Counted from the first letter of the stretch, positions 9,983 through 53,937 are shown. The stretch: DNA of 53,937 bases from a virus (IMGVR_UViG_3300030012_001811:1-53937); one strand, 5' to 3'. Translations and numbers: made by a program. The notes: a model not told the origin generated them from the letters alone.

Positions 9983-9985
9983 AAC

Positions 9986-11288: not shown

Positions 11289-11293
11289 GACCT

Positions 11294-11776: not shown

Positions 11777-11796
11777 TTTTTTGCTAGGAGGTAAAA

Positions 11797-12348: not shown

Positions 12349-12360
12349 GGAGTATAAGAA

Positions 12361-21854: not shown

Positions 21855-22360
21855 AAGAAAATTTTGATAAATCTCTAAAAATGATATTGCATCATGAAGG
21901 TGGCTATGTTAATCACCCCAGAGATCCTGGAGGAGAGACAAACCTTGGTGTCACAAAAAGAGTTTATAAAGAGTATGGTGGCTTAAAAGATATGAAAGAT
22001 TTGACTGTTGACGATGTTGCTCCTATATATGAAAATAATTATTGGAGAAGAGCAAAGTGTGATCACCTCCCATCTGGTTTGGATCTAGCTGTTTTTGATT
22101 GGTCTGTTAACAGTGGTGTTGGTAGAGCTGTTAAAAAGCTACAAACAATGATAGGAACAGAAGCAGATGGTGGCATTGGTCCAAACACTCTTAAAACATT
22201 AGAGGAATATATAGAACATCATGGTCTGGATAAAACTTTGAGAAATTATAAATCAGTTAGGCAAAAGTTTTATGAGTCCTTGTCAACATTTGATACATTT
22301 GGCAAAGGTTGGACAAAAAGAAATGACATGACATTACAGGTGTGCTTGGAGATGATTTAA
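21851..22360 (+). CDS. Endolysin, glycoside hydrolase family 108 with PG-binding domain
   Basis: HEGGYVNHPRDPGGETNLGVT, FDWSVNSG, FGKGWTKR. Confidence 0.92.
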   Translation: MKENFDKSLKMILHHEGGYVNHPRDPGGETNLGVTKRVYKEYGGLKDMKDLTVDDVAPIYENNYWRRAKCDHLPSGLDLAVFDWSVNSGVGRAVKKLQTMIGTEADGGIGPNTLKTLEEYIEHHGLDKTLRNYKSVRQKFYESLSTFDTFGKGWTKRNDMTLQVCLEMI

Positions 22361-35747: not shown

Positions 35748-36170
35748 TTAATTGTTGTTCCATTTATAGAAAATATGATCGTTAATTCTGACTGTTTTCT
35801 GAAGATGTTTTCTCCAAGATGGTTTTACATAATAGGCATGGTAGTGTGTTGCACCATCTGTGGTATCATAGAGCTTGCCCTGTAAAACAAGTCTGGCATA
35901 CTCCTCTGCCACGACATATGCTTCTGGATTATGGATCTCCTCTGGCTTACCATCACACCAAAAGCTGAATTGACATTTGTGTTTGATTGGTCGGTCTTTA
36001 TCCCAAGAATAATAATGCCCTTGTTTAACAACGTCACACACGCTGTCTGGGTATCTGCTGTCAGCAACCCTGTGCATTATAACTTGAGCCACTGCCACCT
36101 GTCCGACCATAGGCTCGCCACGAGCTTCAAAGTAGATCGCTGTGGCGAGACATGCGAGTGCAGTTATCAT
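35748..36170 (-). CDS. SleB-like cell wall hydrolase (Hydrolase_2)
   Basis: CLATAIYFEARGEP, CQFSFWCDGK, GATHYHA, HIFY. Confidence 0.9.
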   Translation of the reverse strand: MITALACLATAIYFEARGEPMVGQVAVAQVIMHRVADSRYPDSVCDVVKQGHYYSWDKDRPIKHKCQFSFWCDGKPEEIHNPEAYVVAEEYARLVLQGKLYDTTDGATHYHAYYVKPSWRKHLQKTVRINDHIFYKWNNN

Positions 36171-36886: not shown

Positions 36887-36990
36887 TTTCCTTTCTCAGT
36901 TAATACCTTAGTATCTCTCGTATTGAGACAAAAGGCAACAAAAAAATTCAAAAGAAAGTGATTTTCTTTTCCTTTAATATCAATGACTTA
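36887..36990 (-). promoter_or_regulatory. Early promoter cassette 2 (IHF site, TTGCCT-17-GATACT, RBS)
   Basis: TATCAATGACTTA at 36978-36990 matches WATCAANNNNTTR. Confidence 0.8.
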
Positions 36991-39801
36991 CGAGAGCTTA
37001 CGCCATTTTTCAACATAAATCTTTCTGAACCCTTGTTTTAAATATCCTTTTATTAAATACCAATCACCTATTTTTCCATCCTCAACTATTGGTTTGCCAA
37101 GCTTGTTATATTTAAATCTGTCAACTGTTGATATGATTGGACCAGTGTCATCCTCAAATGTCATATTCAACCAGAGATTATTGCTGTCAACCTTTCTCCC
37201 TCCTCTTTTGGCTAGGTTCACTGCCTCATTCATGTCTCTCAAGTTCTTCTCTTTGAGCTTGCCGAAAAACACATATGTTCCAGGATTGTCTGCTTCTAAG
37301 TCTTGGATCTCTATTATTGGTGTTTTAATGTTGTGTGCCAGTGGATCTGCTTTTATATGCCCAAACCTCCTCTCACACTCGAATATATCATCGTATGGTG
37401 TTTCTCCATTGTCTAAAAGCTTTTCCTGTCTGGGTGTTAGTGGTTGCTTCAATTCACGTCTGTTTATAATGTCTTCAGCCATTTTTGGACCAACACCTTT
37501 TATCCCTATCAAGCCACCGATGAGTTCACCATTTTGAACTGACCAATTCATGCCAGACCTATATTTATCATATGACTTGTATCCCAAACCCTCTTTTGAT
37601 ACTTCTCTCAAAAGCCTTACACCTTGATCATCATCCTTAACATTCCTGAGACATGCTGCAGCAAACTCCAATGGAAACCTACTCTTGAGCACACAACACC
37701 AGTAGCTGACCAACCCATAGGCAATAGCATGACTTCTGTTAAATGCCCACGATCCCATTGTGTTAATATTTTTCCATATGGTCTGTGCTTGATCTTCATC
37801 AATACCATTTTCAATGGCACCAACTTTAAACTTCTGCCAGTAGCCATCAAAGAACTCCTCACCAAGAGATTTACTCATGGCTTTGCGCAACTGAGACACA
37901 TCCTCCCAACTGAGCTTGCCAACATCCCTAGCAATGTTCATAACTTGCTCCTGATAAACAACAACACCATAAGTAACTTTTGTTATGTCCTCAGTCATTG
38001 GGTGTAAATATTCCACTGGTTTTTCACCGATCTTCCTCTTGATATATTGAGTTGTACCACCAGAGTTCAATGGTCCAGGACGAGCCAAAGCAGTTATTGA
38101 TGCAATGTCTTCAAAATTATGAACTTTCATCTGCCTAGTCAAAGACTGCAGTGCGTAACCCTCAAACTGGAATATGCCTGCATACTTTTCATCATTCAAC
38201 AGCTCAAAAGCTTTTTCATCATCCAATGGGTGCTTTAATAATTTTTCTCTGCTCCATCCTATCTGATCAAGAACATCTTGCAAAACTGACAATGTTCTCA
38301 AACCCAAAGCATCAATTTTTAATAAGTTCAGATCCTCAGCATCTTTTTTGTCTATCTGTGCTGCACCTGTTTGACCAGAAACAGAACAGTAAAGACTGAC
38401 TGGATCCTCTGTTATTATAATCCCTGCTGCATGAACACCATTGTGTCTGGCATGGTTCTCCATATCTGCAGCAACTCTCATTTGCGGATACTTTTCTAAG
38501 ATCTGCTTTCCAATGTCAAGATCGTTGAATGTGTCAAGTATGCAAAATGCTGCACGGGAATCACCACCACTCCTCTCAATGATAGCACCTTTTAAGTCAT
38601 TGACCTCCCATGCTGGTATTCCAAGTTCTTTCGCAACTTCTGATATAGTTGATTTTGCTTTGTATCTTGACACTGTTCCTAGATGGGCAACTTTTTCTGC
38701 ACCATACTTTTGCCTGATGTATTCAAAGACCATCTCTCTGCGATCATCTTGAAAGTCGATATCTATGTCTGGCAGATCTGCCCTAGTAATATCAATAAAT
38801 CTTTCGAACAGTAAGTCATGCTCTATCGGATCAATGTCTGTTATGCCAATCAGATAGCAAACCAATGACCCAGCACTGGATCCACGAGCTGGACCAACAA
38901 GCATATGTTCCTTGGCATAGTTTATCATGTCTGCTATAACATAAAAATAATCCTCAAAATCTTTATCAGCTATCAGTTTTAACTCCCTGTCCAACCTTGC
39001 TTTGTAAACAGGATCGCTAAGATCTATCTCTCTTGGCTTTGCTCCCTCGACACACATTTGTCTCAAAGTCTTATCAGAATGAAATGATATCATTTGAGCA
39101 GTTGGCAAATCAACATTACAATCCAAAGCTATTTTATATGTCATGTCTATTGCTTCTTGTGGTGCCCATGGCAAAGCATCTTTCCATTCCCACTCATTAA
39201 GTATATGCATTGGCGCAGTTCTATCTTGTCTGTTCCTGCCAACTAACACCTCATATGCTTTTTTGTCTTCTGGCTTTGGATAATAATTATCAGAGGTGGC
39301 AACAAAATTAAATCCTTTCTCTTCAGCCCATTTAAAATTATTTTTAGTTGTCATGGGATTGATCTCGAAATACATATCATCTTTTTTGGCCAAAGGAAGC
39401 AATCCTAGTATTGGATGCGTTCCTGTCAATATTATTATGTTTTTGCTGATATCAAAAAGGTGCTCATAGCTTAATCTTGGATGATAATAAAAATGATCTT
39501 TGTCTGTGCTTTTTGTCACTAGTTGATAAAGCTCTCTCAAGCCATCATTGTTTTTGGCTATGAATGTCATCTCATTTGTTGGTTGTTTGGATCTCTCTGT
39601 TGCATCCTCAACTATTGGTATCTCAACTCCAAACAAAGGTTTCTTTCCTGCTTTCTTACAAGCCTTGCTGAAAGCAACATGACCCCATGTTCCAGAGTCA
39701 GATATGCCCATGACATCACCTTCTGTTGTCTCAACAACTTTATGGATTGGTCCGAAAGCTTTTCGGAAAGAATATTCTGATCTCAAACGAACATTTATCA
39801 T
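36988..39801 (-). CDS. dnaE: DNA polymerase III alpha subunit (family C)
   Basis: GPARGSSAGSLVCY, PDIDIDF, GVHAAG, KIDALGL, GIFQFE, LARPGP, FNRSHAIAY. Confidence 0.96.
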   Translation of the reverse strand: MINVRLRSEYSFRKAFGPIHKVVETTEGDVMGISDSGTWGHVAFSKACKKAGKKPLFGVEIPIVEDATERSKQPTNEMTFIAKNNDGLRELYQLVTKSTDKDHFYYHPRLSYEHLFDISKNIIILTGTHPILGLLPLAKKDDMYFEINPMTTKNNFKWAEEKGFNFVATSDNYYPKPEDKKAYEVLVGRNRQDRTAPMHILNEWEWKDALPWAPQEAIDMTYKIALDCNVDLPTAQMISFHSDKTLRQMCVEGAKPREIDLSDPVYKARLDRELKLIADKDFEDYFYVIADMINYAKEHMLVGPARGSSAGSLVCYLIGITDIDPIEHDLLFERFIDITRADLPDIDIDFQDDRREMVFEYIRQKYGAEKVAHLGTVSRYKAKSTISEVAKELGIPAWEVNDLKGAIIERSGGDSRAAFCILDTFNDLDIGKQILEKYPQMRVAADMENHARHNGVHAAGIIITEDPVSLYCSVSGQTGAAQIDKKDAEDLNLLKIDALGLRTLSVLQDVLDQIGWSREKLLKHPLDDEKAFELLNDEKYAGIFQFEGYALQSLTRQMKVHNFEDIASITALARPGPLNSGGTTQYIKRKIGEKPVEYLHPMTEDITKVTYGVVVYQEQVMNIARDVGKLSWEDVSQLRKAMSKSLGEEFFDGYWQKFKVGAIENGIDEDQAQTIWKNINTMGSWAFNRSHAIAYGLVSYWCCVLKSRFPLEFAAACLRNVKDDDQGVRLLREVSKEGLGYKSYDKYRSGMNWSVQNGELIGGLIGIKGVGPKMAEDIINRRELKQPLTPRQEKLLDNGETPYDDIFECERRFGHIKADPLAHNIKTPIIEIQDLEADNPGTYVFFGKLKEKNLRDMNEAVNLAKRGGRKVDSNNLWLNMTFEDDTGPIISTVDRFKYNKLGKPIVEDGKIGDWYLIKGYLKQGFRKIYVEKWRKLS

Positions 39802-39869
39802 GATATATAATTAGATAAAATTATAACCACTATTGCTCCGATGATGGATCCAATTAATGCTGGTGTCAT
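39798..39869 (-). CDS. 23-aa single-TM micro-peptide
   Basis: MTPALIGSIIGAIVVIILSNYIS; AAAGGAG RBS; stop overlaps dnaE ATG. Confidence 0.5.
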   Translation of the reverse strand: MTPALIGSIIGAIVVIILSNYIS

Positions 39870-39871
39870 TT

Positions 39872-40453
39872 CTATGCTCCTTTCATAGTTTCAAAAAAGT
39901 TATACCACCCTGTGATGATAGTTTTTGTGCCAATATTATTTATCACACCTCTGTGAGTATGTGTCCAACCAACTGGCCAAATGACAGTTAGTCCTTTAAC
40001 ACATGGCGTTGACAATTTCTGATAATAAAATTCTGTCCCAGCATTATCCAAAGTATTTAAGTATGTCATGAACGCTAAATGCCTTGAGCAATCTGCTAAA
40101 CCCATGTTTTCACAATGCCATCCATAAAAACCCTCTCCAGGTTTATAACGCTGTATGTTTATTCCCTCAACAATTTTATAAGGGGAGATGCGATCACTAT
40201 AAGAAAATTTTTCTTTATAGCTATCTAAACACTCTTGTAGATAAAAAAGATATCTATCAAGCTTATAAAACTCTTTTGGGAAAACAGTTTTCTCTGTGCT
40301 TTTTTTGATTTCTTCATTAACACCTCCTCCAGCCATGCCTTTTGCGTGAGTGTCTTTTTCTGAGTCATAAAGTTGCATTATATCATCACAGACATTCTCT
40401 GGCATATACCAACCACCAATAAAGGTGCTCTCATCAATTTTATGTTCATCCAT
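39872..40453 (-). CDS. 2OG-Fe(II) oxygenase
   Basis: WHCE (HxE), YLN..GTEF, THTHRG, K.IITGW. Confidence 0.88.
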   Translation of the reverse strand: MDEHKIDESTFIGGWYMPENVCDDIMQLYDSEKDTHAKGMAGGGVNEEIKKSTEKTVFPKEFYKLDRYLFYLQECLDSYKEKFSYSDRISPYKIVEGINIQRYKPGEGFYGWHCENMGLADCSRHLAFMTYLNTLDNAGTEFYYQKLSTPCVKGLTVIWPVGWTHTHRGVINNIGTKTIITGWYNFFETMKGA

Positions 40454-40986
40454 TAAAGGTGTCCTTCTTTTTTATACCATTTCAGAATCTCTACTGTTGC
40501 CTCAACATCTGCCAGAGATCTGTGAGCTGATTTATGCTCTTTGCCAGTGACCTCAAAGTAGATCTCTCCAAGCTTTCTGAACTTCCCCCAGACTGATTTG
40601 CCTAGTTCCATTGTGCACACGTGCTCACATGGCCAAGGGAACTTGGTTATTTTATCCGATCTCTCAAGCTCAAACTTTAGTATCTGTCTGTCGAAAGTTA
40701 AATTGTGGGCTGATAAGTGGCTCTCGCCAAGAAAAAAATCACATAAACCTTTGAAATGAGCTATGAATGGTTTTTCTGTTTTAAGCATCTCATCTGTTAT
40801 TCCTGTGATCTTTGTTATCTTTGGATCCAAGTCATGTCCAGGATTGCACATGAACTCAAGTCTGTCAACCTCTTTGAAATCATCATCAACCTTGATAGCA
40901 CCAAACTCTATTATTTTGGGCTGAATGTTTAAGTCAGATCCCTCTGCTTTAGGAAGTCCAGTTGTCTCCAAATCAAACACTATCAT
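40453..40986 (-). CDS. DEDDh 3'-5' exonuclease (DnaQ/epsilon-like)
   Basis: VFDLETTG, AHNLTFD, AHRSLADVEAT. Confidence 0.9.
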   Translation of the reverse strand: MIVFDLETTGLPKAEGSDLNIQPKIIEFGAIKVDDDFKEVDRLEFMCNPGHDLDPKITKITGITDEMLKTEKPFIAHFKGLCDFFLGESHLSAHNLTFDRQILKFELERSDKITKFPWPCEHVCTMELGKSVWGKFRKLGEIYFEVTGKEHKSAHRSLADVEATVEILKWYKKEGHL

Positions 40987-41449
40987 CTTTGTTAATCCTA
41001 ACAATAAATTTAAGATCCACTCCTAGTATATGTTGTGTATCAAAAATCACATAGTTATAAGATCTCTTTCCTGCTATCACTGGATTCGTATGAGAGTCTG
41101 TGAAAACCTCTTGAGCCACCTCAATAAACCTTTCCTTGAAAAACTCCTTCCATTTAATCAGCTCTGCGTTGGTGCAGTGCATCCCCAGATGACTAACAAC
41201 ATTCCTGTCACCTCTTTCATCTATCCAGTTTCTACCTGATGTATAGTTCAAGACCTCAAACTCTTTGCCAGATATCAAATCATAATTAAAAGATAAGTCT
41301 GCCTCATTTGTTCCTTCGTTTGAAAAAACATTGCCAGTGGCAACAACATGATCTTCAGTCCACTCAACTGCACCCATCTCAGAAAGAAGTTTCTTTGCAG
41401 CAATAGGATTCTCTGGGCAGATAGCTATTTGTTCGATTGTGAATTTCAT
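40973..41449 (-). CDS. VOC/glyoxalase-like protein
   Basis: EQIAI...FEVL...SHLGMH pattern of paired beta-alpha-beta-beta-beta modules. Confidence 0.55.
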   Translation of the reverse strand: MKFTIEQIAICPENPIAAKKLLSEMGAVEWTEDHVVATGNVFSNEGTNEADLSFNYDLISGKEFEVLNYTSGRNWIDERGDRNVVSHLGMHCTNAELIKWKEFFKERFIEVAQEVFTDSHTNPVIAGKRSYNYVIFDTQHILGVDLKFIVRINKDDSV

Positions 41450-41450
41450 T

Positions 41451-42143
41451 TTATGCTCCATATGGTAATATGCACCCAGTCAAATATTTGTGGTGCTCTT
41501 TTGATTGAAGTAGGAAAGCAATAAACTCAGCCAATCTTTCTGGTGGAGTTTCTTCCCCTGCTAACAGCCCATTGAGTTGATACTCTTGAGCATATTCTTT
41601 TGTCCAGCCACGAGTTTTAACGACCTGTTCATCTATTGAGTCACTCATGCCAGTGCCAGACAGTTTGTTAGGTGCTATGCCGAAAACTGTTATGCCATGC
41701 TTTTTTGTAAGCTCACGAGCCAACTGCAAAGTCATTATGTGTGCAGCACCTTTTGATGCATTGTAAGCCAACGAGCAAGTCATAGGCATATGTGCAGCAT
41801 TGCTGACGACATTGACAACAGTTCCTTTCGATTTTATTAATGATGGCAAACAAGCTTTTGTCATAAGATATATGCCCTTGGCATTCGTGTCCATGACCTT
41901 GTCCCACATATCCTCCTCAAAATTTTCAAGCCAATCTATCAAATTAACACCAGCATTATTTATTAAGATATCAATATCAAAAGGTGTGATATCCAAAACC
42001 TCTTTCAATGCTTTTGCCTCTCTGACATCGTTGCCATCTTCTATATTGAAACCATGAACACTATGCCCTTGTTCCTCAAGCTTATCAAACATTGCCTTGC
42101 CTAGACCACTGCTGGATCCAGTTATTAAAATATTACTCATCAT
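41451..42143 (-). CDS. Short-chain dehydrogenase/reductase
   Basis: TGSSSGLG, NNAG, S...YNASK catalytic triad. Confidence 0.92.
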   Translation of the reverse strand: MMSNILITGSSSGLGKAMFDKLEEQGHSVHGFNIEDGNDVREAKALKEVLDITPFDIDILINNAGVNLIDWLENFEEDMWDKVMDTNAKGIYLMTKACLPSLIKSKGTVVNVVSNAAHMPMTCSLAYNASKGAAHIMTLQLARELTKKHGITVFGIAPNKLSGTGMSDSIDEQVVKTRGWTKEYAQEYQLNGLLAGEETPPERLAEFIAFLLQSKEHHKYLTGCILPYGA

Positions 42144-42441
42144 CTTCTCCCTTAATTAATGACTCGACCATTGCAGCATAAACTGCAGCATCATGAATGG
42201 AGTCCTTGTGTTTTAAGTCGCTGTTTGCAAACCTTGTTATTTTAACAATCATCAGCTCAAACAAATGCCAAATGTTAAAATCATCATTGCTCCTCAGTTC
42301 AACTCCCTTTGGGAACAAAGCTACCATAACCTCACCAACATTTTTATAATTGTCTCCATAAACTCTGTTCCTCTCTCTGAATGTGTTGGCCATCTCCTCG
42401 AGGATCTGAGCTGCATCTTTATTCTTCTTTTTTATAGACAT
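42133..42441 (-). CDS. DUF6378-like nucleotide-modification-associated helical protein
   Basis: ERNRVYGDNY...VKITRF...DSIHDAAVYAAM. Confidence 0.62.
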   Translation of the reverse strand: MSIKKKNKDAAQILEEMANTFRERNRVYGDNYKNVGEVMVALFPKGVELRSNDDFNIWHLFELMIVKITRFANSDLKHKDSIHDAAVYAAMVESLIKGEDDE

Positions 42442-42610
42442 GATGTTGTTTCCCTTCCTCGTATGCTTCTTCAACCTTTGTATCATAATCATTTGCTTTG
42501 TCAAGCAGTTCCCTTAACTCATGCATTTGAACAGAGCTTATGTCGAAGATCCTAGCGACCTTTTTATCATCAAGCTCTAAGTCATTGCCAACTATTCTAA
42601 TCCTTTCCAT
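42419..42610 (-). CDS. Small hypothetical protein
   Basis: MERIRIVGNDLELDDKKVARI...; TGATG coupling. Confidence 0.6.
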   Translation of the reverse strand: MERIRIVGNDLELDDKKVARIFDISSVQMHELRELLDKANDYDTKVEEAYEEGKQHHVYKKEE

Positions 42611-43044
42611 CAGAACTCTCCTGCAGCAACTTGGAGACAGGTCAACCCTTCTTTCCTCCACATATCAACGACTACCTTACGATCTTCTAGAACAAACCAA
42701 ACATTTTCTTTCTCAATGTTTTGCTCGAGCATATTTTTCTTGCAGTCGTCATCATGAGACATATCTCCAGTTTTCCTCATTAACAATCTGTCAAATGGAA
42801 TGTCGTTAAGTCTTAACCACTCAGCAGTGTCTTGATGGTGCCACTCATCTCTGGCAGTCATTACAACTATCTCTGTTTCATCATCATGAAGTCTTCTTAA
42901 TATGTTGCAAACATTTTCTATTGGCTTGTCGTCTTTGCCTCTTGAATTAAAAGCATCATAATCTTTTTGGATCCAAAATTTAACACGATGTTGATAATCA
43001 GACAATGTGCCATCGAGATCTGCTATGATTATTCTTTTCTTCAT
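42610..43044 (-). CDS. HAD-family phosphatase (T4 PNK 3'-phosphatase-like)
   Basis: DLDGT, TAR, K, EDR motifs. Confidence 0.88.
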   Translation of the reverse strand: MKKRIIIADLDGTLSDYQHRVKFWIQKDYDAFNSRGKDDKPIENVCNILRRLHDDETEIVVMTARDEWHHQDTAEWLRLNDIPFDRLLMRKTGDMSHDDDCKKNMLEQNIEKENVWFVLEDRKVVVDMWRKEGLTCLQVAAGEF

Positions 43045-43054
43045 AATTTTCTCC

Positions 43055-43615
43055 CTAATTAAATTTCGGTCCATTTATAAAATATGCCAGACTGATCCTA
43101 TCACCATCTGTTACAGGTGTAACCTCATGCCAGAGGTGAGACTTGAAAAGGACAACACTTCCTGGTGTTCTAAATTTTTCTGCTGGCTGTTTATTAATAA
43201 TTAATTCACCTCCAGTGTAAGTTCCCTCAGACAAATTAATTAACATTGTCATCTTGGTGTCAAAAATAATACTGCGAGAAGAATCAGTGTGTGCACCATA
43301 ATGACCTTTGATTTTTGAAGAGTAAACATTTTGCAGTGTAACATCATATATGTTAGGAGGGAATGTAACATAACCAAATTCACAATGACAAGTTCTAATA
43401 ACTTTTTGCACTAAATTTTTAATAGCTGTTGTGTGGTCTCCAAGATAGATCCTCTTTGGTTTTATGTTCTTTTTGAGACTACCATCTGGATTTTGCGCAC
43501 CATCACTTGAATCCTCAATATCAAAATATTTTTCATTGATCTGTTTGTTTGCTGATTTTATTTCTTCTGTCGTCAGTTGTGGTTCATCCCAAACCCAAAA
43601 ATCATAAAAACTCAT
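43055..43615 (-). CDS. 2OG-Fe(II) oxygenase (PKHD/prolyl-hydroxylase-like)
   Basis: HTD, YTGGEL, WHEVTPVTDGDRISL. Confidence 0.88.
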   Translation of the reverse strand: MSFYDFWVWDEPQLTTEEIKSANKQINEKYFDIEDSSDGAQNPDGSLKKNIKPKRIYLGDHTTAIKNLVQKVIRTCHCEFGYVTFPPNIYDVTLQNVYSSKIKGHYGAHTDSSRSIIFDTKMTMLINLSEGTYTGGELIINKQPAEKFRTPGSVVLFKSHLWHEVTPVTDGDRISLAYFINGPKFN

Positions 43616-43878
43616 TTCACACTCCCTAATAATTTTTTCTGAATATTTTTCAAAAGATTTTTCATTTTATTATTCTTCTTATCAACCTCATCCATAGCAA
43701 TCTTCAGATCCTTAAATAATTTTCTGTGCTTGAATGGTTTGACTTTGTAAATGACATATCTAACTTTTGACTCATGCATGCCAACGATCTCACCTATCTG
43801 CCTCATAGTTTTGCCCTCAGATCTCAAGTCATGTATCTTGATTGCGAGATCCTCGCTATATAATTTTTTCCTGCCCAT
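43612..43878 (-). CDS. Helix-turn-helix DNA-binding protein
   Basis: GKTMRQIGEIVGMHESKVRYVI. Confidence 0.7.
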   Translation of the reverse strand: MGRKKLYSEDLAIKIHDLRSEGKTMRQIGEIVGMHESKVRYVIYKVKPFKHRKLFKDLKIAMDEVDKKNNKMKNLLKNIQKKLLGSVK

Positions 43879-43886
43879 TGCCTAAC

Positions 43887-44534
43887 CTATTTATTTAAAG
43901 CTTTATACATAGATGGTGCAGCCCACTCTGTAGGAGTTAAAAATGGTTCTGCCCATGGGTGCTCTTTCACTACCTCATCAACCATAAGCTTAAACACCTC
44001 TTGATATTCACCTTGTGCTCTCGGTGATAAACGAGACTTTGCCATCTCACTCAAAGTTCGCAGATTGAACTTTGCGACAATGTTGGTGTGAATGTTTGTT
44101 GGCAATATCCCTCTAGCATCTTCTGCAGGGATATCCAGAGACCTCAATGCTTGATATTGATCATTTATAACTTTCATGGCAGTGTTATAGATCAACCTTG
44201 CATCTTCATTGTCTGATATTCTTGGTGGCGTATAATATCCAAAACCTTGCATGTCAACTGTTCTCTGAGATTGTTGAGCGTATGAACCTTGACGTGTCCT
44301 AACAAACTGATGGGTGAACCCTCTTGTCACATCCCTGATATCAAAGGTGTAGTCAATGAACTCCCAAGAGGATCTTATGGTCTGTAGCATGTAGTCAAGT
44401 TCTGCCTGCTTCTTTTCATCATCCCATTGAGAGACTTTTTCATAAGCATCCTCATCATTCATCAACCTTGTGTTTTTTGTAAACAGCAATAAGTTCACTG
44501 CATCTGACGTCGCATTAATTAATTTCACTTTCAT
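43887..44534 (-). CDS. thyX: ThyX-like flavin-dependent thymidylate synthase homologue (divergent motif)
   Basis: HQFVRTRQGSYAQQSQR (canonical RHRX7S, here RTR), EDARGILP, NLRTL, RAQGEY. Confidence 0.85.
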   Translation of the reverse strand: MKVKLINATSDAVNLLLFTKNTRLMNDEDAYEKVSQWDDEKKQAELDYMLQTIRSSWEFIDYTFDIRDVTRGFTHQFVRTRQGSYAQQSQRTVDMQGFGYYTPPRISDNEDARLIYNTAMKVINDQYQALRSLDIPAEDARGILPTNIHTNIVAKFNLRTLSEMAKSRLSPRAQGEYQEVFKLMVDEVVKEHPWAEPFLTPTEWAAPSMYKALNK

Positions 44535-45466
44535 GCTTTCATTCCTTTCTGATTATGCATAAGTCTTGTGTAGCCACTGCTACCTCTGATAAACCTCTCA
44601 ATGTGTTGACAATCTTCAACAACATCATCGAGAAGCAACTGTCGCCAAGTCGCAAAACGACCTAGTGAATATATACCATACTTGGTTGTCATTTCAAATA
44701 TGAATTGTTTCCTCAGATCCTCATCGATGGGTCTGATCTTTCCATACAGTTGATTTGATTGCTCCATGTGATGGATCTTGTAAGCTCGGATGCCGAAGTC
44801 CTCTTTGAGCACCTCCATTAAATGTGGTCCAGGAATTGACTCTGGTTTGCGAACGAACTCTGATATTATTATATTGCCTATAATGGAAACTCTATAAAAT
44901 GGTAACTTTGGATCTGGGTAATAAATAGTTTGATAAACATTACACTCTGGATCCAAGATAGTTCCCTTTTGCGTCCATATCTGTTGATGAGGAAACTCTG
45001 GTATATCTTGCCAACCTATTATCTTCATCAGTGTGGGCATTGGTATAGTAGATATGATTGGCTGTTCAGTTCTCTCTATGACACTCTTGCTCAAGCTCAT
45101 ACCATATCTCATCTTGCAATTGCTTGCCATCATTTTTATAAGTTCCCATGGAGCTATAAACCTGTCTGATGGATCCAAATTATTTATGGATCTGCTGAGT
45201 ATAGCTCCTGTGACTTTTTGAGAATATAAATTACTTAGTCGAAGGTTTGGAGTTGTGTGAATTTTGTCATGGTATTTTATGGCTTTGTGCACACGAACTT
45301 TTTTGAATGGTATGGCACAAGCTGTCCCAACTTTGTCAGTTCTAAATCTTAACAATGCTCCATGATTGTTCGGGAGATCTTTTTGTGCCTCGTGGACTTC
45401 AACGTCAAACCCACGAAGCATATTCCCTGCTAACAAACCTGCTAAGCCTGCACCATAAATAATCAT
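44531..45466 (-). CDS. FAD-dependent oxidoreductase (UDP-galactopyranose mutase/amine oxidase-like fold)
   Basis: IYGAGLAGLLAG dinucleotide-binding motif, ISTIPM, SLGRFATWR. Confidence 0.75.
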   Translation of the reverse strand: MIIYGAGLAGLLAGNMLRGFDVEVHEAQKDLPNNHGALLRFRTDKVGTACAIPFKKVRVHKAIKYHDKIHTTPNLRLSNLYSQKVTGAILSRSINNLDPSDRFIAPWELIKMMASNCKMRYGMSLSKSVIERTEQPIISTIPMPTLMKIIGWQDIPEFPHQQIWTQKGTILDPECNVYQTIYYPDPKLPFYRVSIIGNIIISEFVRKPESIPGPHLMEVLKEDFGIRAYKIHHMEQSNQLYGKIRPIDEDLRKQFIFEMTTKYGIYSLGRFATWRQLLLDDVVEDCQHIERFIRGSSGYTRLMHNQKGMKA

Positions 45467-46047
45467 ACCAATTCAACCCTTCCTTTTTTAAGATCGTGAG
45501 CAACATCTTCTCTCACTCCAGCTTTTAAGATGTCGAACTCTTTTGACTTCTCGATCAACAGCTCATAATTGATCCCACCTTTGTTAGCCATGATGATCTC
45601 AAAAATGTGCCAAGCACGAGTGCCAGTCTTTCTAGGATTTTCCTTGACAACAGCTTTTACCACCTTGTCATAAAAAGCACCTCTCCCTCTGGAGACCTTT
45701 GCATCATCCTTGATGATCTTGGCAACAGTGGGTGCATTCTTTTTTGCGAAGTCGCTGATCTTGGATCCATTCCAACGAGTTGATGCCACTGGCACATCCA
45801 TGCCATTTATAAGATTAAATAATCTGACACCACCTTTTGCTTTGTCAGAAAACCTGCTGACAGGCTTTTTGGAGTACTTGTTATATATCTCTGCTAGCTT
45901 TGCAGTGGATACATTAACATTGTTGTAGATCTCGAGTGCACTAGAAAAATGGAGAGATCCATTTTGCATAACCTCAGCAACATCTCTGCTAACGTAGGCT
46001 TTCACTTCAAGAGTTTTTAAGTCGATTGAATAACATTTGTCTAACAT
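45463..46047 (-). CDS. Early hypothetical protein
   Basis: ATG 46047 after GAGAAAGGAA; C-terminal ENPRKTGTRAW segment. Confidence 0.72.
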   Translation of the reverse strand: MLDKCYSIDLKTLEVKAYVSRDVAEVMQNGSLHFSSALEIYNNVNVSTAKLAEIYNKYSKKPVSRFSDKAKGGVRLFNLINGMDVPVASTRWNGSKISDFAKKNAPTVAKIIKDDAKVSRGRGAFYDKVVKAVVKENPRKTGTRAWHIFEIIMANKGGINYELLIEKSKEFDILKAGVREDVAHDLKKGRVELV

Positions 46048-46051
46048 GATT

Positions 46052-46140
46052 TTTTCCTTTCTCAGTATCAATAGAGATTAGTATGTCTTATTTTTTGCAA
46101 AAAGAAAAGGATTTTCTTTCCCTTTAAAATCAAACACTTA
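46052..46140 (-). promoter_or_regulatory. Early promoter cassette 3 (IHF site, TTTTCT-17-CATACT, RBS)
   Basis: AATCAAACACTTA at 46128-46140; ACTGAGAAAGGAA shared with the other cassettes. Confidence 0.7.
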
Positions 46141-47667: not shown

Positions 47668-49197
47668 TTAAAACTCATCTGTTACTGTTGATGGTATATC
47701 AAGTTCTTCATCATCATAAAACTCTGGTGCTGGCACAGACCAAACCTTCACAGGCTTTGATTTTATTCTGAATGCTTTTCTGTCACCACCTAAGTTCCTC
47801 AACCAAGACCATATCTGATGTTGACTTGGATACCTAAATCTTCTCGAGTCAAGATATATAAATAAATCCTCTGACCTAAAATAAACTTTGCCATCATCTG
47901 AATCATGCCATGGCTTGGCATTCATTATTTCATCTTTGTGTCTGGCTTGAACTTTACCAGTCAAAAATGAATCTAATACTTTTTCAAATTGACCTTGTGG
48001 TGATGCATCATCTGGATCCACGACAACTTCAACAGAACTCAACAACTCATTTATCCTTTGTTCCCACTTGGGTGCTGGCATAGTGCTAGGACATTTGTTA
48101 AGCTTTTCAACGCAAAGTTTTTGCAACTGCCTTTGATCTAGTAGTTGAGGTGTTGTGACCTCAATCCTTTCTCCTTGGATCTCGATGTACCATCTGACTG
48201 ACGATCTGTTTTCTGTTTCATATTTTGTTATGGCATCAATGTTTATTGTTGCACCACCTCCCACACCACCAATCCCAAAAGACCTTTTCATGCATTTTGA
48301 TTTTTCACAATAGTTGCATATGGGTGCTTGTTTGCAAGTGTAAGCATAATCTTTTTTGCTAACTCCCTTGATTAAAGTATTGACTTCACTGGATGGCAAA
48401 GGTGTTGCGACATGCTCATAATTAAACTTCATAAGATCCTCTTGCCAGTCGTCTGGATTCTTCTTGCGATAGTAAACACCGACATTAAACAAAGAAATGT
48501 TTCTTCCTCCCTCTGGGAAACCCATTGTCATGATATGTTGCAAGCATGGTGGACCATCATCAAAATGACTAACAAGCTCTGGTTTGTAACTATCAAGCTC
48601 CTCAAACGTGGTTGTTTTCTTTTCAGCAACTTTTATAAAATTTTTAAGATCTAATTTTTTGCCATTGTGGATTGCATATCGTTCTGTATCGTCACCATTC
48701 CAGTAACAAAGATTTATCCAGTTGCCTCTGTCTCTCTCATTGGCTCTACTTATTTGTTTCGGGAATATCTCTGCACCACCATAACCTAGTGTGGCTGCAA
48801 ACTCATTAAGCTTTGCCACCATATCAATGGCAGGTATAGCAGGATCACAAAATAGATACAAGTGAGCACCACCAGACTTAGACCTGCAAAGTACCAATGG
48901 TGTCTTATTGATTTTCTTCTCGAGTTGTTCAAGCGATTCATTCAACTTTACCTCCCCTCTTATGTCAACGTCAATAACTCCAAAATTGCAAGAGTTGTTT
49001 TCACGCAACATTATTATCCCTAATATATATTCACCACCATCAAGGTGTTCTTTAAAATGCTCCTCAGTTGCTGGCTCTGCTACTGTGACTGCTCTCCCAG
49101 ACATCTTGCCATCTGCTTCTTTTTTCTGAACTCTGTATTGACCATGAGCCAACTCATAGCCTTTGAAAAGTTTCATAAACTTTTTTATTGGATCCAT
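47668..49197 (-). CDS. Primase (AEP/prim-pol type with PriCT-like domain)
   Basis: IDVD, SKSGGAHLY, EIFPKQ, GPPC...GGRNISLF. Confidence 0.82.
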   Translation of the reverse strand: MDPIKKFMKLFKGYELAHGQYRVQKKEADGKMSGRAVTVAEPATEEHFKEHLDGGEYILGIIMLRENNSCNFGVIDVDIRGEVKLNESLEQLEKKINKTPLVLCRSKSGGAHLYLFCDPAIPAIDMVAKLNEFAATLGYGGAEIFPKQISRANERDRGNWINLCYWNGDDTERYAIHNGKKLDLKNFIKVAEKKTTTFEELDSYKPELVSHFDDGPPCLQHIMTMGFPEGGRNISLFNVGVYYRKKNPDDWQEDLMKFNYEHVATPLPSSEVNTLIKGVSKKDYAYTCKQAPICNYCEKSKCMKRSFGIGGVGGGATINIDAITKYETENRSSVRWYIEIQGERIEVTTPQLLDQRQLQKLCVEKLNKCPSTMPAPKWEQRINELLSSVEVVVDPDDASPQGQFEKVLDSFLTGKVQARHKDEIMNAKPWHDSDDGKVYFRSEDLFIYLDSRRFRYPSQHQIWSWLRNLGGDRKAFRIKSKPVKVWSVPAPEFYDDEELDIPSTVTDEF

Positions 49198-49216
49198 TAT
49201 TATTCCTTTCTGAGTC

Positions 49217-49251
49217 GTCAGGGAGGAGTTGAAGGATCTCCTCCCCTAGAC
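49217..49251 (-). other. Intergenic stem-loop upstream of primase
   Basis: Minus strand GGGAGGAG-ATCCTTCAA-CTCCTCCC, no U-tract. Confidence 0.55.
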
Positions 49252-49281
49252 AATGCAATGTTAACAAGCAGTATTGGCAGA

Positions 49282-50067
49282 CTACATTACATCATCATCT
49301 TGTGACTCAGGAGAAACCTTAACATCTCCTTGTGCAACTTGTGCTTTAAAATTTCTAGCAGCAAGATAAATTTCTTCACCTTGTGGGTGGTTTTGAATTA
49401 TGCCACCAGACTTTGCGTCATGGTTCATTTTAAATGACCAACCAAACCATGAACCTTGATCATTCTTTTCTGGCACAGTTGTTAGCTGATATGATGTGAA
49501 AAACATTGCTGGGTTAATAACTTGCCCATCTGCTTCAATCATAAGCCTGTTCATCATAGTGTTCCATGTGCGAGCTTTTTTAAATTGTGACTTGCTCATA
49601 GACAGAACTGCTGGAGTGTATCCATCATCATCAATTAAGAAAACAAAGTATTCACCAGTGATAACAATCTCATTGCCCTCATCAGTAAAATATTCACCCT
49701 TGTCTCCTCTGGAACATTTCTCCAAAACCTTTTCATCAGATCCATGATCTGCTACCAAGCCACCACGATCCTTTTTCCATTCAATGTGCGCACGTCTGTA
49801 GCTGATTGGCACGACCTCAATGCCTTTCTCTCCATTGATTGCTTTGTTCGCAACATTGTCCAAGATCATTCCTGGCTCTGCTCCTGCGACATATGCACCA
49901 TTGGCTTTGTTAACTTGGTCAGACATTTGTTGAAGAATAGATAATCTGGGAATCATCATATCTTCTTGCGACATCTTCTCCTGTCCAGCACCTGCGTCCT
50001 GCAGCAACATTGCTGAATTAATATTTGAAACATTTGTTTCTTTTTTCTTAGTTACATTGTTTGCCAT
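49282..50067 (-). CDS. Putative ssDNA-binding/annealing protein
   Basis: IPRLSILQQMS, EKNDQGSWFGW, acidic C-terminal tail; in replication module. Confidence 0.62.
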   Translation of the reverse strand: MANNVTKKKETNVSNINSAMLLQDAGAGQEKMSQEDMMIPRLSILQQMSDQVNKANGAYVAGAEPGMILDNVANKAINGEKGIEVVPISYRRAHIEWKKDRGGLVADHGSDEKVLEKCSRGDKGEYFTDEGNEIVITGEYFVFLIDDDGYTPAVLSMSKSQFKKARTWNTMMNRLMIEADGQVINPAMFFTSYQLTTVPEKNDQGSWFGWSFKMNHDAKSGGIIQNHPQGEEIYLAARNFKAQVAQGDVKVSPESQDDDVM

Positions 50068-50068
50068 T

Positions 50069-50662
50069 TTATTTTCTCCTTATGCTGGCTTTGCGTCCTG
50101 TGTAAACACGGAACATTTCAAGTGGAACATCTTTGCCTTCACCCAGTCTCTCTTGTAAGTATTTATTAAGAGTCGCAGGGTGGACACCGACTGCACGTTT
50201 GAAGTAAAGCTTCTCATCACGTAGTCTTTGAGTGAACTCATTGCACACGTCATCTTCATCTTTACCAAATTGAACCTCAACATTGCTTTTGATCATTGAT
50301 GCACCTCCATTTTTGCGCAACCAATCAAAGCATTGCTGTTGGAGCATTTGAAGACTAACTCTGCTTTGTTCATCCTTGGCACGATCTATTGCACCTTGAG
50401 ATGGCACAGATCCCGAGATGATTTCTTTCACCTCAACTTTGGATCCATTTTTTAAAGTAAAGTCTTTCAAATTCAGTTCTTGCATTAAGTCAGGCAAGTT
50501 CTGTTCTGCCAACATTCTGAGATCCTGCTTTTTTGACTTCAACAACTCTTCAAGATCTGAGATCTCATTTTCAAGATCAAACATCCTTTGAGCCATATCA
50601 GTAACTGCACCAAGTTCATTGGATGCTGGTGCCACATCCTCAAGCAGATCAATATCACTCAT
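50069..50662 (-). CDS. Conserved replication-module protein
   Basis: Coiled coil plus FDWLRKNG...IK and VHPATL motif. Confidence 0.7.
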   Translation of the reverse strand: MSDIDLLEDVAPASNELGAVTDMAQRMFDLENEISDLEELLKSKKQDLRMLAEQNLPDLMQELNLKDFTLKNGSKVEVKEIISGSVPSQGAIDRAKDEQSRVSLQMLQQQCFDWLRKNGGASMIKSNVEVQFGKDEDDVCNEFTQRLRDEKLYFKRAVGVHPATLNKYLQERLGEGKDVPLEMFRVYTGRKASIRRK

Positions 50663-51033
50663 GCTGATATGTTTTCCTTTCTTAGTTCGAGAGCTACAGG
50701 CATATAATAACCTTTACGACGATCCCTTTCACCCTCATCAATGTTTCGCTCCCAACGGAGCACTCTAACAGTGGATGCCTTCTCACTAGCAATCATGCAA
50801 GCAATCATGACAGCGATTGGGTCTCCACCTCCTGGCCAGAGAAGATAATCCTCTGACGAGAAGTCCTTCATGATCCGACGTGCTTTTTGCACACTTGGTC
50901 CTGGAAGAAACTGTGGCTTATCATTTGCCTCAAATATTATTTCCAGAGATCCATATCGTGATGCATCAGTTAAGTCTGGCACCCATCCAAACTTATTCTT
51001 CACTGGTCGGTTCACAACATAAACTTTTGACAT
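50659..51033 (-). CDS. Hypothetical protein
   Basis: GAGAAAGGGAA RBS; DYLLWPGGGDP. Confidence 0.75.
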   Translation of the reverse strand: MSKVYVVNRPVKNKFGWVPDLTDASRYGSLEIIFEANDKPQFLPGPSVQKARRIMKDFSSEDYLLWPGGGDPIAVMIACMIASEKASTVRVLRWERNIDEGERDRRKGYYMPVALELRKENISA

Positions 51034-52806: not shown

Positions 52807-53370
52807 ATGCCAGAAGAGATAAAGAAAAGAGGACGACCGAAAAAGAACACTGGTGAAAAAACAATTGTAAAGAGACCAGTGAAAGATGGACCACCTGTTC
52901 AGCCAGAAAAATGGGATGGTCGTTTTAAGTCTGTTGAACCTATGAAGAATCAAAAGAGAGCTAGACAGACTGCTTACAAATGGAATCATCACGCCACAAT
53001 TAATTGGATCATGGGTCAAGCAGATCCTGTTGGATTCCTTGCTGCAGTTATGCAAGGCAAAGAGATGTTTCCTGTTTACTCAAAAGACTCTGAAGGTCTT
53101 GCAACCAAAGCAGGAAATATTGCTGCAGATCCAGAGTTAAGAGTTATGGCTGCAAAAACTCTGTTGGGCAAATGTGTCCCAGATTTGAAAGCAGTAGAAG
53201 TGAAAGCACAAATAGAAGAGAGAAAGGTTCTGGATATTTCCAGATTAAGTGATAATGACCTCAACACAATTGAACGAGTTCTTGAACACGCTGTCATTGA
53301 CGGAGATCCGAGCAGAGAAGATGAAGAGATCCCTCAAGGAGTTCACCAAGAGCTCTTGGCAAACGATTGA
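52807..53370 (+). CDS. Putative terminase small subunit
   Basis: Directly upstream of and overlapping terL; LRVMAAKTLLGKCVPDLKAVE and DISRLSDNDL motifs; AAGGA RBS. Confidence 0.68.
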   Translation: MPEEIKKRGRPKKNTGEKTIVKRPVKDGPPVQPEKWDGRFKSVEPMKNQKRARQTAYKWNHHATINWIMGQADPVGFLAAVMQGKEMFPVYSKDSEGLATKAGNIAADPELRVMAAKTLLGKCVPDLKAVEVKAQIEERKVLDISRLSDNDLNTIERVLEHAVIDGDPSREDEEIPQGVHQELLAND

Positions 53371-53937
53371 ACCAGGACGAGAGTTCTACGACAACTGGCA
53401 CATAGACGCAATCAGTGAGCACTTGCAAGCTGTTGTTGAAGGTGACATAAAAAGATTAATAATAAATATTCCTCCAAGGCATATGAAATCTATCTCTGTT
53501 GCTGTTGCTCTGCCTGCATGGACTTGGACTATCCAGCCACAAAAAAGATTTCTGTTTGCCTCTTATGCTCTGTCATTATCTGTCAGAGACTCTGTTAAAT
53601 GCAGGAGACTGATAGACAGCCAATGGTATAAACAACACTTTGGCCAGAGCTTTGAGTTAACAACAGACCAAAATCAAAAGCAAAGATTTGAGAACAGCAG
53701 GACAGGATACAGGATTGCTACCTCTGTTGATGGTGCATTGACTGGTGAAGGTGGCGACATAATTGTTATTGACGATCCTCACAATGTTCGGGAGGCAGAA
53801 AGCTCAACAGTTCGTCAAGGTGTTTTGGATTGGTGGGATCAAGCAATGCAGTCAAGACTTAATGATCCAAAGACTGGTGCTTTTGTAATTATAATGCAGA
53901 GAGTTCATGAAAATGATCTGACAGGACACATACTTGC
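53255..53937 (+). CDS. terL: Terminase large subunit, N-terminal ATPase part (runs across the junction)
   Basis: Own translation ...RLIINIPPRHMKS...TGEGGDIIVIDDPHN...; in frame with position 1; absent from the ORF track because it has no stop within the window. Confidence 0.93.
   Translation, partial: MTSTQLNEFLNTLSLTEIRAEKMKRSLKEFTKSSWQTIEPGREFYDNWHIDAISEHLQAVVEGDIKRLIINIPPRHMKSISVAVALPAWTWTIQPQKRFLFASYALSLSVRDSVKCRRLIDSQWYKQHFGQSFELTTDQNQKQRFENSRTGYRIATSVDGALTGEGGDIIVIDDPHNVREAESSTVRQGVLDWWDQAMQSRLNDPKTGAFVIIMQRVHENDLTGHIL
53819..53937. repeat. Terminal direct repeat, right copy
   Basis: Matches 1-119 with two synonymous differences. Confidence 0.97.

Follow-up and report, generated by a model that had tools for sequence, protein, structure and literature searches.

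In 5-(4',5'-dihydroxypentyl)uracil of the Bacillus phage SP-15 and in base J, C5 of uracil carries a polyhydroxyalkyl or a glycosylated hydroxymethyl group. Base J of kinetoplastids is formed on the DNA by JBP/TET dioxygenases together with a glucosyltransferase, and we know of no gene assignment for the SP-15 base. Here we analyze a candidate pathway for a base of this kind in the genome of a marine phage (IMGVR_UViG_3300030012_001811:1-53937), of which the whole stretch of 53,937 nucleotides (nt) is referred to as the window. A run of ten genes at positions 39,872–45,466, which begins with a flavoprotein and a homologue of the thymidylate synthase ThyX and ends next to the gene of a DnaE-type DNA polymerase, had been interpreted from the sequence alone (hereafter the sequence-only reading) as a new route to a C5-substituted pyrimidine with a sugar- or polyol-derived side chain. 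Comparison with described systems and with related viral loci partly supports this interpretation.

The accessible part of Lee et al. 2021 (PMC8989533) describes pathways derived from 5-hydroxymethyldeoxyuridine (5-hmdU) in the phages M6, ViI, PaMx11, and SP10, which employ a ThyA-type hydroxymethylase of deoxyuridine monophosphate (dUMP), a P-loop 5-hmdU DNA kinase, and amino-acid transferases of the aGPT-Pplase type, and it describes the known thymidine hypermodifications as completed on DNA. As far as they are covered there, these pathways resemble the candidate pathway of the window in being phage-encoded and directed at thymidine, in starting with a one-carbon transfer to C5 of dUMP, in their location near replication genes, and in shielding DNA from nucleases, as the candidate would do; they differ in that their side chains are derived from amino acids and are not sugar-like. 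No ThyA-type hydroxymethylase, 5-HMUDK kinase, or aGPT-Pplase was found among the 12 open reading frames (ORFs) of the cluster and 45–46 other ORFs of the window, where ORFs without a family could hide a divergent member, and none of the scanned window ORFs matched a glycosyltransferase family. These family scans agree with the sequence-only reading, which had seen none of the described hypermodification genes.

A closer point of comparison is the genus Pbunavirus, which is among the phages most used in personalized therapy of Pseudomonas aeruginosa (PMC11990801). According to the accessible text of Yee et al. 2025 (bioRxiv 10.1101/2025.03.31.646159 = PMC12191111), five enzymes with TG in their recognition site fail to cut the virion DNA of Pbunavirus F8, whereas five enzymes with sites lacking TG cut it. 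The same text reports new thymidine-derived nucleosides of 362 and 390 Da in F8 and 14-1, which replace about a quarter of T, in TG context, and which were interpreted as sugar-alcohol and cyclised-pentose derivatives. It names Pbunavirus as a case that homology searches for modification genes “could miss” and, within its accessible portion, assigns no genes to the modification. Our full-text literature search, which extended to neither subscription journals nor bioRxiv supplements, retrieved no paper that ties the genes analyzed here to the Pbunavirus base; the sole paper found that names Pbunavirus together with ThyX is a genome description, in which the annotation is given without data. Conceptually, the SP-15 base and base J are analogous to the nucleosides of 362 and 390 Da. 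The base J system differs from the window, in which no glycosyltransferase was detected and whose 2-oxoglutarate (2OG) oxygenase genes are not conserved.

Conservation of the gene core among related viruses

A scan of viral contigs yielded 270 relatives, from which 80 loci were kept, 51 of them spanning the region from the flavoprotein to DnaE. The genes of the flavoprotein, the ThyX-like enzyme, a HAD phosphatase, a DUF6378-like protein, a DnaQ-like exonuclease, and DnaE occur in the same order in all 51 spanning loci, and the gene arrangement is therefore more than chance. A short-chain dehydrogenase (SDR) and a protein of the vicinal oxygen chelate (VOC) fold are present in the same 14 of these loci, and either gene alone in none. 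Hence, of the synteny expected by the sequence-only reading, the part that comprises the core with DUF6378 and DnaE holds throughout, whereas SDR and VOC are a less frequent but always paired addition.

Within a phage collection, the ThyX query matched 577 records and the flavoprotein query 362; a megablast of the region against this collection returned no nucleotide-level match. Grouped by host name, the ratio of flavoprotein to ThyX matches was 292/292 for Pseudomonas, 27/27 for Escherichia, 9/9 for Serratia, and 8/10 for Rhizobium phages. Phages of Gordonia, Mycobacterium, Microbacterium, Bacillus, Streptomyces, and Clostridium had ThyX matches only and no flavoprotein. The VOC protein was detected in 55 phage records (Escherichia 27, Serratia 9, Xanthomonas 6, Microbacterium 4, Pantoea 3, and others), with no Pseudomonas phage among them. 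Fifty-one of these records are phages named for hosts whose phages also match the flavoprotein, and the remaining four are the Microbacterium phages, a host name with ThyX matches only. The protein database contains 2883 relatives of the flavoprotein. Among the flavoprotein relatives from this database, the phage records, and the viral contigs taken together, many carry Tara Oceans source labels and, by these labels, are probably marine.

Named phages were compared by their annotated regions and by tblastn of the window proteins. In Pbunavirus (USP_1, tblastn) we found the flavoprotein, ThyX, a weak HAD match, DUF6378, DnaQ, and DnaE, with HAD and DUF6378 fused, and the same-order core is also present in 14-1 (ORF65, ORF59, ORF57, ORF56, and ORF55). 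Wifcevirus WFC and the Xanthomonas phage Carpasina encode the flavoprotein, ThyX, DUF6378 (as the end of a longer ORF), SDR, VOC, DnaQ, and DnaE, and have no detectable HAD. In Vibrio phage VA-RY-3 and Cronobacter phage Ss1, whose DnaE proteins are 44% identical to that of the window, only the flavoprotein, ThyX, DnaQ, and DnaE were matched, and two unrelated ORFs lie between ThyX and DnaQ.

A ThyX subfamily lacking the motif histidine

The ThyX-like protein of the window (215 aa) matched PF02511 with 133.3 bits in a profile search (cutoff 24.8 bits). In an alignment to ThyX of Thermotoga maritima and Mycobacterium tuberculosis, the RHR..S.RY signature of the canonical enzyme reads RTRQGSYAQQSQRT, exactly as it had been noted in the sequence-only reading. 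Compared with RHRX7S followed by xRY, the His and the Tyr are each replaced by Thr, and the two Arg of the triplet, the Ser, and the following Arg are kept. Where T. maritima ThyX has H53, H59, H79, and Y91, the window protein has I, F, T, and T, and R78, R80, S88, R90, R147, and R174 are retained. The region of H53 reads TIRSSWEF and contains no His, with a one-residue alignment gap nearby; canonical phage ThyX and ThyX structures in the PDB have His at both H53 and H59, except for STSV1 with Tyr at H53. In the canonical enzyme, it is the His at position 53 of the T. maritima protein (69 in M. tuberculosis) that stacks on the pterin of the folate.

These replacements had led the sequence-only reading to call the protein degenerate, a view that neither the motif counts nor the phylogeny bear out. 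RTR-x7-S-x-RT is carried by 117 of the 120 close homologues from the database and by 78 of the 80 viral loci, and RHR by none of them; the exceptions in both sets are RNR, one RTR..RP, and one unreadable motif. A ThyX scan of 1.84 billion cluster representatives gave 3419 matches at E ≤ 1e-3 (105 at E ≤ 1e-30). Among the best 150 of these 3419 representatives, 99 motifs were readable (73 RTR, 7 RNR, 8 RSR, 1 RYR, 1 RAR, and 9 RHR), with the first RHR at rank 84 and the canonical RHR..RY only from rank 137. A quick maximum-likelihood tree was calculated from 97 rows, namely the window protein, 12 phage ThyX, and 84 of the 150 representatives that had at least 190 aa and a readable motif (the other 66 were dropped). 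In this tree, 82 non-His rows and two long-branch RHR rows formed one group with a Shimodaira-Hasegawa-like approximate likelihood ratio test (SH-aLRT) support of 95, which includes the window protein and every ThyX taken from a flavoprotein-bearing phage, and the canonical ThyX sequences grouped apart (SH-aLRT 96). One canonical row from a Bacillus phage was mislabelled as non-His by the motif pattern. The ThyX-like proteins of the actinophages Suzy and Troll4 also lack the His, yet branch with the canonical set. Judged by motifs and tree, the window ThyX is a member of a separate, strictly conserved, and large non-His subfamily and not a degenerate copy. It shares with the canonical enzymes the fold family as recognized by hidden Markov models, the nucleotide-binding arginines, and the motif Ser, and differs from them in the four residues named above, in its subfamily, and in the flavoprotein gene, which always accompanies ThyX of the window type in the relatives examined.

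The accessible portion of a review on ThyX (PMC4913046) describes that intermediates of the reaction add water, yielding hydroxymethyl-dUMP on acid quench. This makes it chemically plausible that a ThyX variant could divert or release the methylene-transfer intermediate.

The ThyX-like proteins of Pbunavirus, Wifcevirus, Carpasina, and two actinophages (loci L005, L007, L003, and L004; L009 and L010) possess a cysteine-rich C-terminal extension (C-x4-G-x-C ... C). This extension is absent from the 215-aa protein of the window and from the proteins of the Vibrio, Cronobacter, and Rhizobium phages.

Predicted folds and families of the accompanying proteins

By sequence, the flavoprotein matched no Pfam family at E ≤ 10 (GLF included) and no NCBIfam family, and nothing significant in the PDB (best E 0.34). 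Its structural model, for which 43 sequences were aligned, has a predicted local distance difference test (pLDDT) value of 83.7. With this model, Foldseek returned UDP-galactopyranose mutases (UGM) as best matches (E about 6e-11), and superposition with UGM (VIA) gave a Z of 19.4 and a root-mean-square deviation (rmsd) of 3.6, with 297 of the 311 residues aligned. UGM was also on top (Z 19.2) in a Foldseek-independent search of 48,161 chains, the rmsd of the best matches being 3.6–3.8. Protoporphyrinogen oxidases (Z 18.6) came next among the fold matches, and then amino-acid and amine oxidases (Z 15–16.7); Renalase-size NAD(P)H-using flavoproteins were present as well. At the level of the fold class, the model thus identifies the protein as a flavin adenine dinucleotide (FAD) enzyme with the fold of the superfamily of UGM, protoporphyrinogen oxidase, and amine oxidases; a flavoprotein of mutase or oxidase type had been guessed before. 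It differs from UGM in that the sequences are only 11–14% identical and that GLF is not matched. Moreover, it has 311 aa as opposed to 360–510 aa and is thus 50–200 residues shorter than the solved UGMs, so that much of the substrate-binding part of UGM is missing.

For the 162-aa VOC protein, no sequence family reached the threshold (Pfam inclusive of E ≤ 10, PHROG). The model (pLDDT 94.7) has the methylmalonyl-CoA epimerase-like protein 3gm5 as top Foldseek match (E 1e-7), and the next matches were methylmalonyl-CoA epimerases, glyoxalase I, and 4-hydroxyphenylpyruvate dioxygenase. Model and Foldseek matches agree that the protein adopts the paired beta-alpha-beta-beta-beta fold of the VOC superfamily, as had been supposed from the sequence.

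The HAD phosphatase matched PF25109 with 105 bits (cutoff 27.6), its DxDxT nucleophile motif being present as DLDGT, and its PDB matches were the phosphatase domains of Pnkp1 (7e-14) and T4 polynucleotide kinase (1e-7). The DUF6378-like protein reached 23.6 bits with PF19905, under the cutoff of 27.1, and nothing credible in the PDB by sequence; its true start is probably at 42441, where the Atlas record begins at residue 22 of the listed ORF. A function of DUF6378 as MazG-like pyrophosphatase could not be confirmed and is not claimed here.

Comparison with the modified Pbunavirus phages

Pbunavirus F8 and 14-1 have the core of flavoprotein, ThyX-like enzyme, HAD plus DUF6378, DnaQ, and DnaE in the same order as the window, and the sugar-alcohol or pentose chemistry reported for them fits a cassette of sugar-handling enzymes. 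The sugar or polyol chain on C5 of a pyrimidine, which the sequence-only reading had predicted from the window genes, agrees with the base measured in these phages. Pbunavirus differs from the window phage in lacking SDR and VOC, in the fusion of HAD with DUF6378, and in the cysteine-rich C-terminal extension of its ThyX.

F8 and 14-1 (loci L007 and L093, respectively) differ in their modifications, and the genes compared between them are mostly about 90–100% identical. Outliers in the cluster are ORF57 (HAD plus DUF6378) with 79% identity, ORF58, ORF60, and ORF61 beside ThyX with 78–82%, and ORF62 with 89%. The stretches of 14-1 that diverge from F8 are located at 9940–12546 and 17997–19301 of L093.

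A possible route to a sugar-bearing thymidine

We consider it plausible, and hold with moderate confidence, that the core of flavoprotein, ThyX-like enzyme, HAD, and DUF6378, with SDR and VOC as an optional addition, is a cassette for a C5-substituted, sugar- or polyol-bearing thymidine in phage DNA, of the kind seen in F8 and 14-1. This view builds on the constant gene order, the predicted folds, the fixed replacements in the active site of ThyX, and the occurrence of the core in phages whose DNA modification has been measured or is suspected. We infer the catalytic steps as follows. The ThyX-like enzyme, which keeps the dUMP-binding arginines, would transfer carbon to C5 of a uracil nucleotide in a flavin-dependent reaction. 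With the His and Tyr of the canonical enzyme lost, the exocyclic-methylene intermediate might not simply be reduced to a methyl group, but could be captured by water or by a sugar hydroxyl; alternatively, the carbon unit itself could be sugar-derived. The flavoprotein may recycle flavin or handle the sugar, and the HAD phosphatase may take a phosphate off a side chain derived from a sugar phosphate or off a nucleotide. In lineages that have the pair, including the window phage, SDR and VOC would reduce and isomerise the side chain. A sequence-context step on the DNA, carried out by a further protein, is probably also needed.

The nucleotide composition was examined with regard to the TG context. 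CpG is strongly depleted in the window (rho 0.35), and TG and CA are in excess (1.33 and 1.36); with a CpG rho of 0.70 for the pooled relatives, the window stands out as extreme even among its own clade. A single CGCG and a single CCGG are present in the window, and 17 six-base palindromes are absent, none of which contains TG or CA. A zero-order contrast in the window (median of 1.15 for the TG class versus 0.20, p = 0.0002) is confounded by the CpG depletion and was rejected. When six-base palindromes were counted with Markov correction in the pooled relatives (866 kb), the observed/expected ratio (O/E) was 1.01 (n = 16) for palindromes containing TG or CA, which are thus not avoided. Palindromes without TG/CA were avoided, with an O/E of 0.90 for those also lacking CpG (n = 27, p = 0.012, a value that is optimistic because the loci are mutually related) and of 0.70 for those containing CpG (n = 21); the 12 most avoided palindromes are all without TG/CA (hypergeometric p = 0.021). 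As a sign of modification in TG context in the relatives, this pattern is suggestive only. For the window alone, the Markov-corrected TG/CA contrast was not significant (p = 0.10).

The relatedness of the pooled loci, the confounded contrast, and the null result for the window weigh against the proposed cassette, and so do the following points. The modification was measured in virion DNA of Pbunavirus, whereas the window phage is known from its genes alone, and the link between the cassette and the Pbunavirus base is guilt by association, with many other unassigned genes in these phages. One of them is ORF70, which has no Pfam family and is the most divergent gene between F8 and 14-1 (57% identity), a candidate for an alternative determinant of the modification; the sequence comparison is only suggestive here, and either ORF70 or the block around ORF57 may specify the difference between the two phages. 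The flavoprotein matched protoporphyrinogen oxidase (Z 18.6) within one Z unit of UGM, and the structural match hence indicates a fold class only. A route at the nucleotide level alone, with incorporation by DnaE, fits poorly with the TG specificity that was reported for Pbunavirus, as such specificity requires an enzyme that reads DNA, and no cassette protein is known as one. Among the window ORFs, neither a nucleotide kinase that would convert a bulky dUMP derivative to the triphosphate nor a transferase was detected. Lastly, the ThyX-like gene is the sole gene of thymidylate-synthase type found in the window, and with 98.3 bits its product exceeds the cutoff of the TIGR02170 equivalog (87.9 bits), so that it may simply make dTMP.

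The last point leads to the explanation that the cluster is an ordinary nucleotide-supply module, in which the ThyX-like protein would be a functional thymidylate synthase whose active site is a variant. The flavoprotein would then serve it as an NAD(P)H-dependent flavin reductase or be an oxidoreductase without relation to it, HAD and DUF6378 would clean or rebalance the dNTP pool, SDR and VOC would be auxiliary metabolic genes, and all of them would be located beside DnaE only as genes of the replication phase. In addition to the two family assignments (PF02511 and TIGR02170) and the missing second synthase, this explanation draws on the retained dUMP-binding arginines, on the public records, which label relatives of the window ThyX as thymidylate synthase, and on the Renalase-size flavoproteins among the fold matches. 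It is at odds with the replacement of four His/Tyr residues that both reference ThyX share, since these replacements are fixed across a large subfamily, and with canonical ThyX, which is not known to need a partner reductase. The confinement of the VOC protein largely to cassette-bearing phages likewise speaks against it, and it leaves unexplained both the hypermodified thymidine of Pbunavirus and the restriction resistance of Wifcevirus, for neither of which other genes are known. Overall, we regard a pure supply function as rather unlikely, but as the main competitor of the preferred explanation and one to be taken seriously.

Alternatively, the cassette could act after replication on thymine or uracil in DNA, with T in TG being oxidized or alkylated by the ThyX-like protein, in which smaller residues take the place of H79 and Y91, or by the flavoprotein, and the sugar being attached there afterwards. 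The TG context and the replacement of about one quarter of T, as reported in the accessible text on Pbunavirus (bioRxiv 10.1101/2025.03.31.646159), are consistent with such a route, as is the completion of the known thymidine hypermodifications on DNA in the available part of PMC8989533. The route would also be compatible with the lack of a detected nucleotide kinase in the window. Furthermore, the HAD protein falls into the polynucleotide-kinase phosphatase type, and its solved relatives have the ends of nucleic acids as substrates. We nevertheless judge action on DNA by these proteins to be improbable, because no enzyme of the ThyX family is known to act on polymers, because the Pfam and NCBIfam scans detected no DNA-binding domain in the cassette proteins, and because the window ThyX does not have the cysteine-rich extension of its homologues in Pbunavirus, Wifcevirus, and Carpasina.

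Within the preferred explanation, a cassette for a sugar- or polyol-bearing thymidine, a more specific and distinctly speculative variant is that the ThyX-like enzyme uses an aldose or aldose phosphate instead of methylene-tetrahydrofolate, which would lead to a C-C-linked 5-(polyhydroxyalkyl)-deoxyuridine. In UGM, N5 of the reduced flavin acts as a nucleophile on the sugar. By analogy, the aldose or its phosphate could condense with N5 of the reduced flavin, the UGM-fold partner performing the loading; C5 of dUMP would attack the resulting iminium, a flavin hydride would reduce the adduct, and HAD would strip the terminal phosphate. In the window phage, SDR and VOC would then tailor the chain. 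The mass arithmetic for such products is deoxyuridine (dU, 228) + pentose (150) + 2H − H2O = 362 and dU (228) + hexose (180) − H2O = 390, in agreement with both reported nucleosides. If this variant holds true, the transfer of a C-glycosyl or alkyl group to a nucleobase by a flavin-dependent enzyme would constitute a new class of reaction. We consider it doubtful, and somewhat more so than a route acting on DNA.

While phage thymidine hypermodification as such is already known, the candidate enzyme logic of this cassette has not been described before. If the cassette makes the Pbunavirus base, a pathway based on a ThyX-family enzyme and a UGM-fold flavoenzyme would stand apart from all described thymidine hypermodifications, which follow a logic of ThyA, kinase, and transferase. 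Such a pathway would explain the restriction resistance of Wifcevirus and would be widespread, as judged from the 2883 protein relatives, 362 phage records, and 270 viral contigs. Presence or absence of SDR and VOC would predict side chains that differ by lineage.

The 2OG oxygenases, the HTH protein, and the variable slot

The two 2OG-Fe(II) oxygenases of the run (a and b) are unrelated in sequence (E 0.057 against each other). The best PDB match of oxygenase a is a PKHD hydroxylase (7e-5). It has a weak match to PF12851 (Tet_JBP; E 7e-4, 19.3 bits versus a cutoff of 34.9), and its Tet-like PDB match is at E 0.09. Neither oxygenase was found in any of the 51 spanning related loci, and a homologue of the small helix-turn-helix (HTH) protein was present in two. 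In comparison with L013, which has 95.7% nt identity, the segment 43067–43611 with oxygenase a is absent (43045–43657 in comparison with another locus), and the segment 39884–40458 with oxygenase b is absent from L014. Compared with loci of 90–96% nt identity, each oxygenase is hence a cleanly delimited additional segment of the size of a gene.

A full ten-gene pathway, as assumed by the sequence-only reading, in which the oxygenases and the HTH protein are integral steps, such as a hydroxylation of the side chain or of thymine, could appeal to the position of these genes inside the operon with overlaps to their neighbors and to the weak Tet_JBP match, but is highly improbable and largely refuted by the sequence comparison with relatives, given the counts above, the clean absence of both oxygenases from close relatives, the PKHD/PiuC-type best solved relative of oxygenase a beside a non-significant Tet-like match, and the different gene that relatives mostly have in the slot. 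The two oxygenases and the HTH protein are more readily seen as later insertions, which would have separate roles.

The slot between ThyX and HAD in the relatives is mostly occupied by a small ORF and a 160–200 aa protein similar to T4 endonuclease V (Pyr_excise). The Pyr_excise domain was recognized in 14 of 15 representatives of this slot at E ≤ 0.01, and in seven of the 15 above the Pfam cutoff; examples are L015:2552-3037, L047:6650-7174, and those of 13 other loci. This protein of DNA glycosylase fold, which is conserved within the cassette of the relatives, could serve in UV repair or in a DNA-level step.

Gene arrangement and other features of the genome

All ten genes of the run were confirmed on the minus strand, in the positions that had been read from the sequence, and mostly overlap each other (Table 1). 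As calculated from the coordinates, neighboring genes between g202 and DnaE overlap by 4, 4, 4, 20, 11, 11, 32, and 1 nt or are separated by 8, 105, and 70 nt; most junctions are thus overlaps, of 1–32 nt.

Table 1 Genes of the cluster and its two neighbors in the order of transcription, with their coordinates in the window.
Feature	Coordinates	Strand	Place in the cluster	Evidence
g202, 202-aa protein without family	45463..46071	-	loosely associated; directly upstream of the flavoprotein gene	overlaps flavoprotein gene
FAD-binding flavoprotein, 311 aa (predicted)	44531..45466	-	core	phrog_4828 5e-68; N-terminal GxGxxG; predicted fold
ThyX-like flavoenzyme, non-His (RTR..S.RT) subfamily	43887..44534	-	core	PF02511 1e-38; TIGR02170; overlaps flavoprotein gene by 4 nt
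Small HTH protein	43612..43878	-	variable slot, outside core	weak HTH matches, all under curated Pfam/NCBIfam cutoffs
2OG-Fe(II) oxygenase a (PKHD/PiuC-like)	43055..43615	-	variable slot	PF13640 7e-11
HAD phosphatase, PNKP type	42610..43074	-	core	PF25109 (HAD_PNKP) 5e-30; DLDGT intact
DUF6378-like small protein	42133..42441 (ORF listed from 42504)	-	core	phrog_4889 C-terminal part 1e-30
Classical SDR	41451..42143	-	accessory with VOC	PF00106 2.5e-34; TGxxxGxG and YxxxK present; FabG-like PDB matches
VOC-fold protein (glyoxalase/methylmalonyl-CoA-epimerase-like), 162 aa (predicted)	40973..41461	-	accessory with SDR	predicted fold
DnaQ-like DEDDh 3'-5' exonuclease	40453..41004	-	proofreading partner of DnaE	PF00929 1e-26; phrog_192
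2OG-Fe(II) oxygenase b	39872..40453	-	between DnaQ and DnaE	PF13640 9e-8; phrog_61 2e-33
DnaE-type DNA polymerase III alpha subunit	36988..39801	-		PF07733 5e-70; PF17657; PHP

The protein g202 has no match among the families of Pfam, PHROG, and NCBIfam, and relaxing the Pfam scan to E ≤ 10 gave nothing usable. Homologues of g202 are present in 37 of the 51 spanning loci, and g202 showed no similarity to the positionally equivalent gene of Vibrio phage VA-RY-3. Between oxygenase b and DnaE, a 22-codon ORF at 39800–39868 (minus strand) encodes a hydrophobic peptide, its stop codon overlapping the start of DnaE (ATGA).

The gene of the large terminase is divided between the ends of the window (1–942 and 53249–53935, plus strand), and the window therefore represents a complete, circularly permuted phage genome of ~54 kb. 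Structural genes occupy the plus strand up to ~32.6 kb, and the replication genes are on the minus strand. No tRNA genes were found in the window. Among the structural genes, a homologue of the co-chaperonin Cpn10/GroES (PF00166, 4e-14) is encoded at 9986–10384 (plus strand). The genome also has two separate genes of cell-wall hydrolases, at 21851–22360 (plus strand) and 35748–36170 (minus strand); one is an endolysin beside a holin in the late region, and the other is a Hydrolase_2 (SleB-type) protein inside the replication operon. The region 47668–51033 (minus strand) encodes a primase with an AEP domain of the type found in TOTE conflict systems. Three genes downstream of the primase match the families of gp32, gp33, and gp34 of cyanophage Pam3, and the gp33 and gp34 families also match ORF52 and ORF51 of 14-1.

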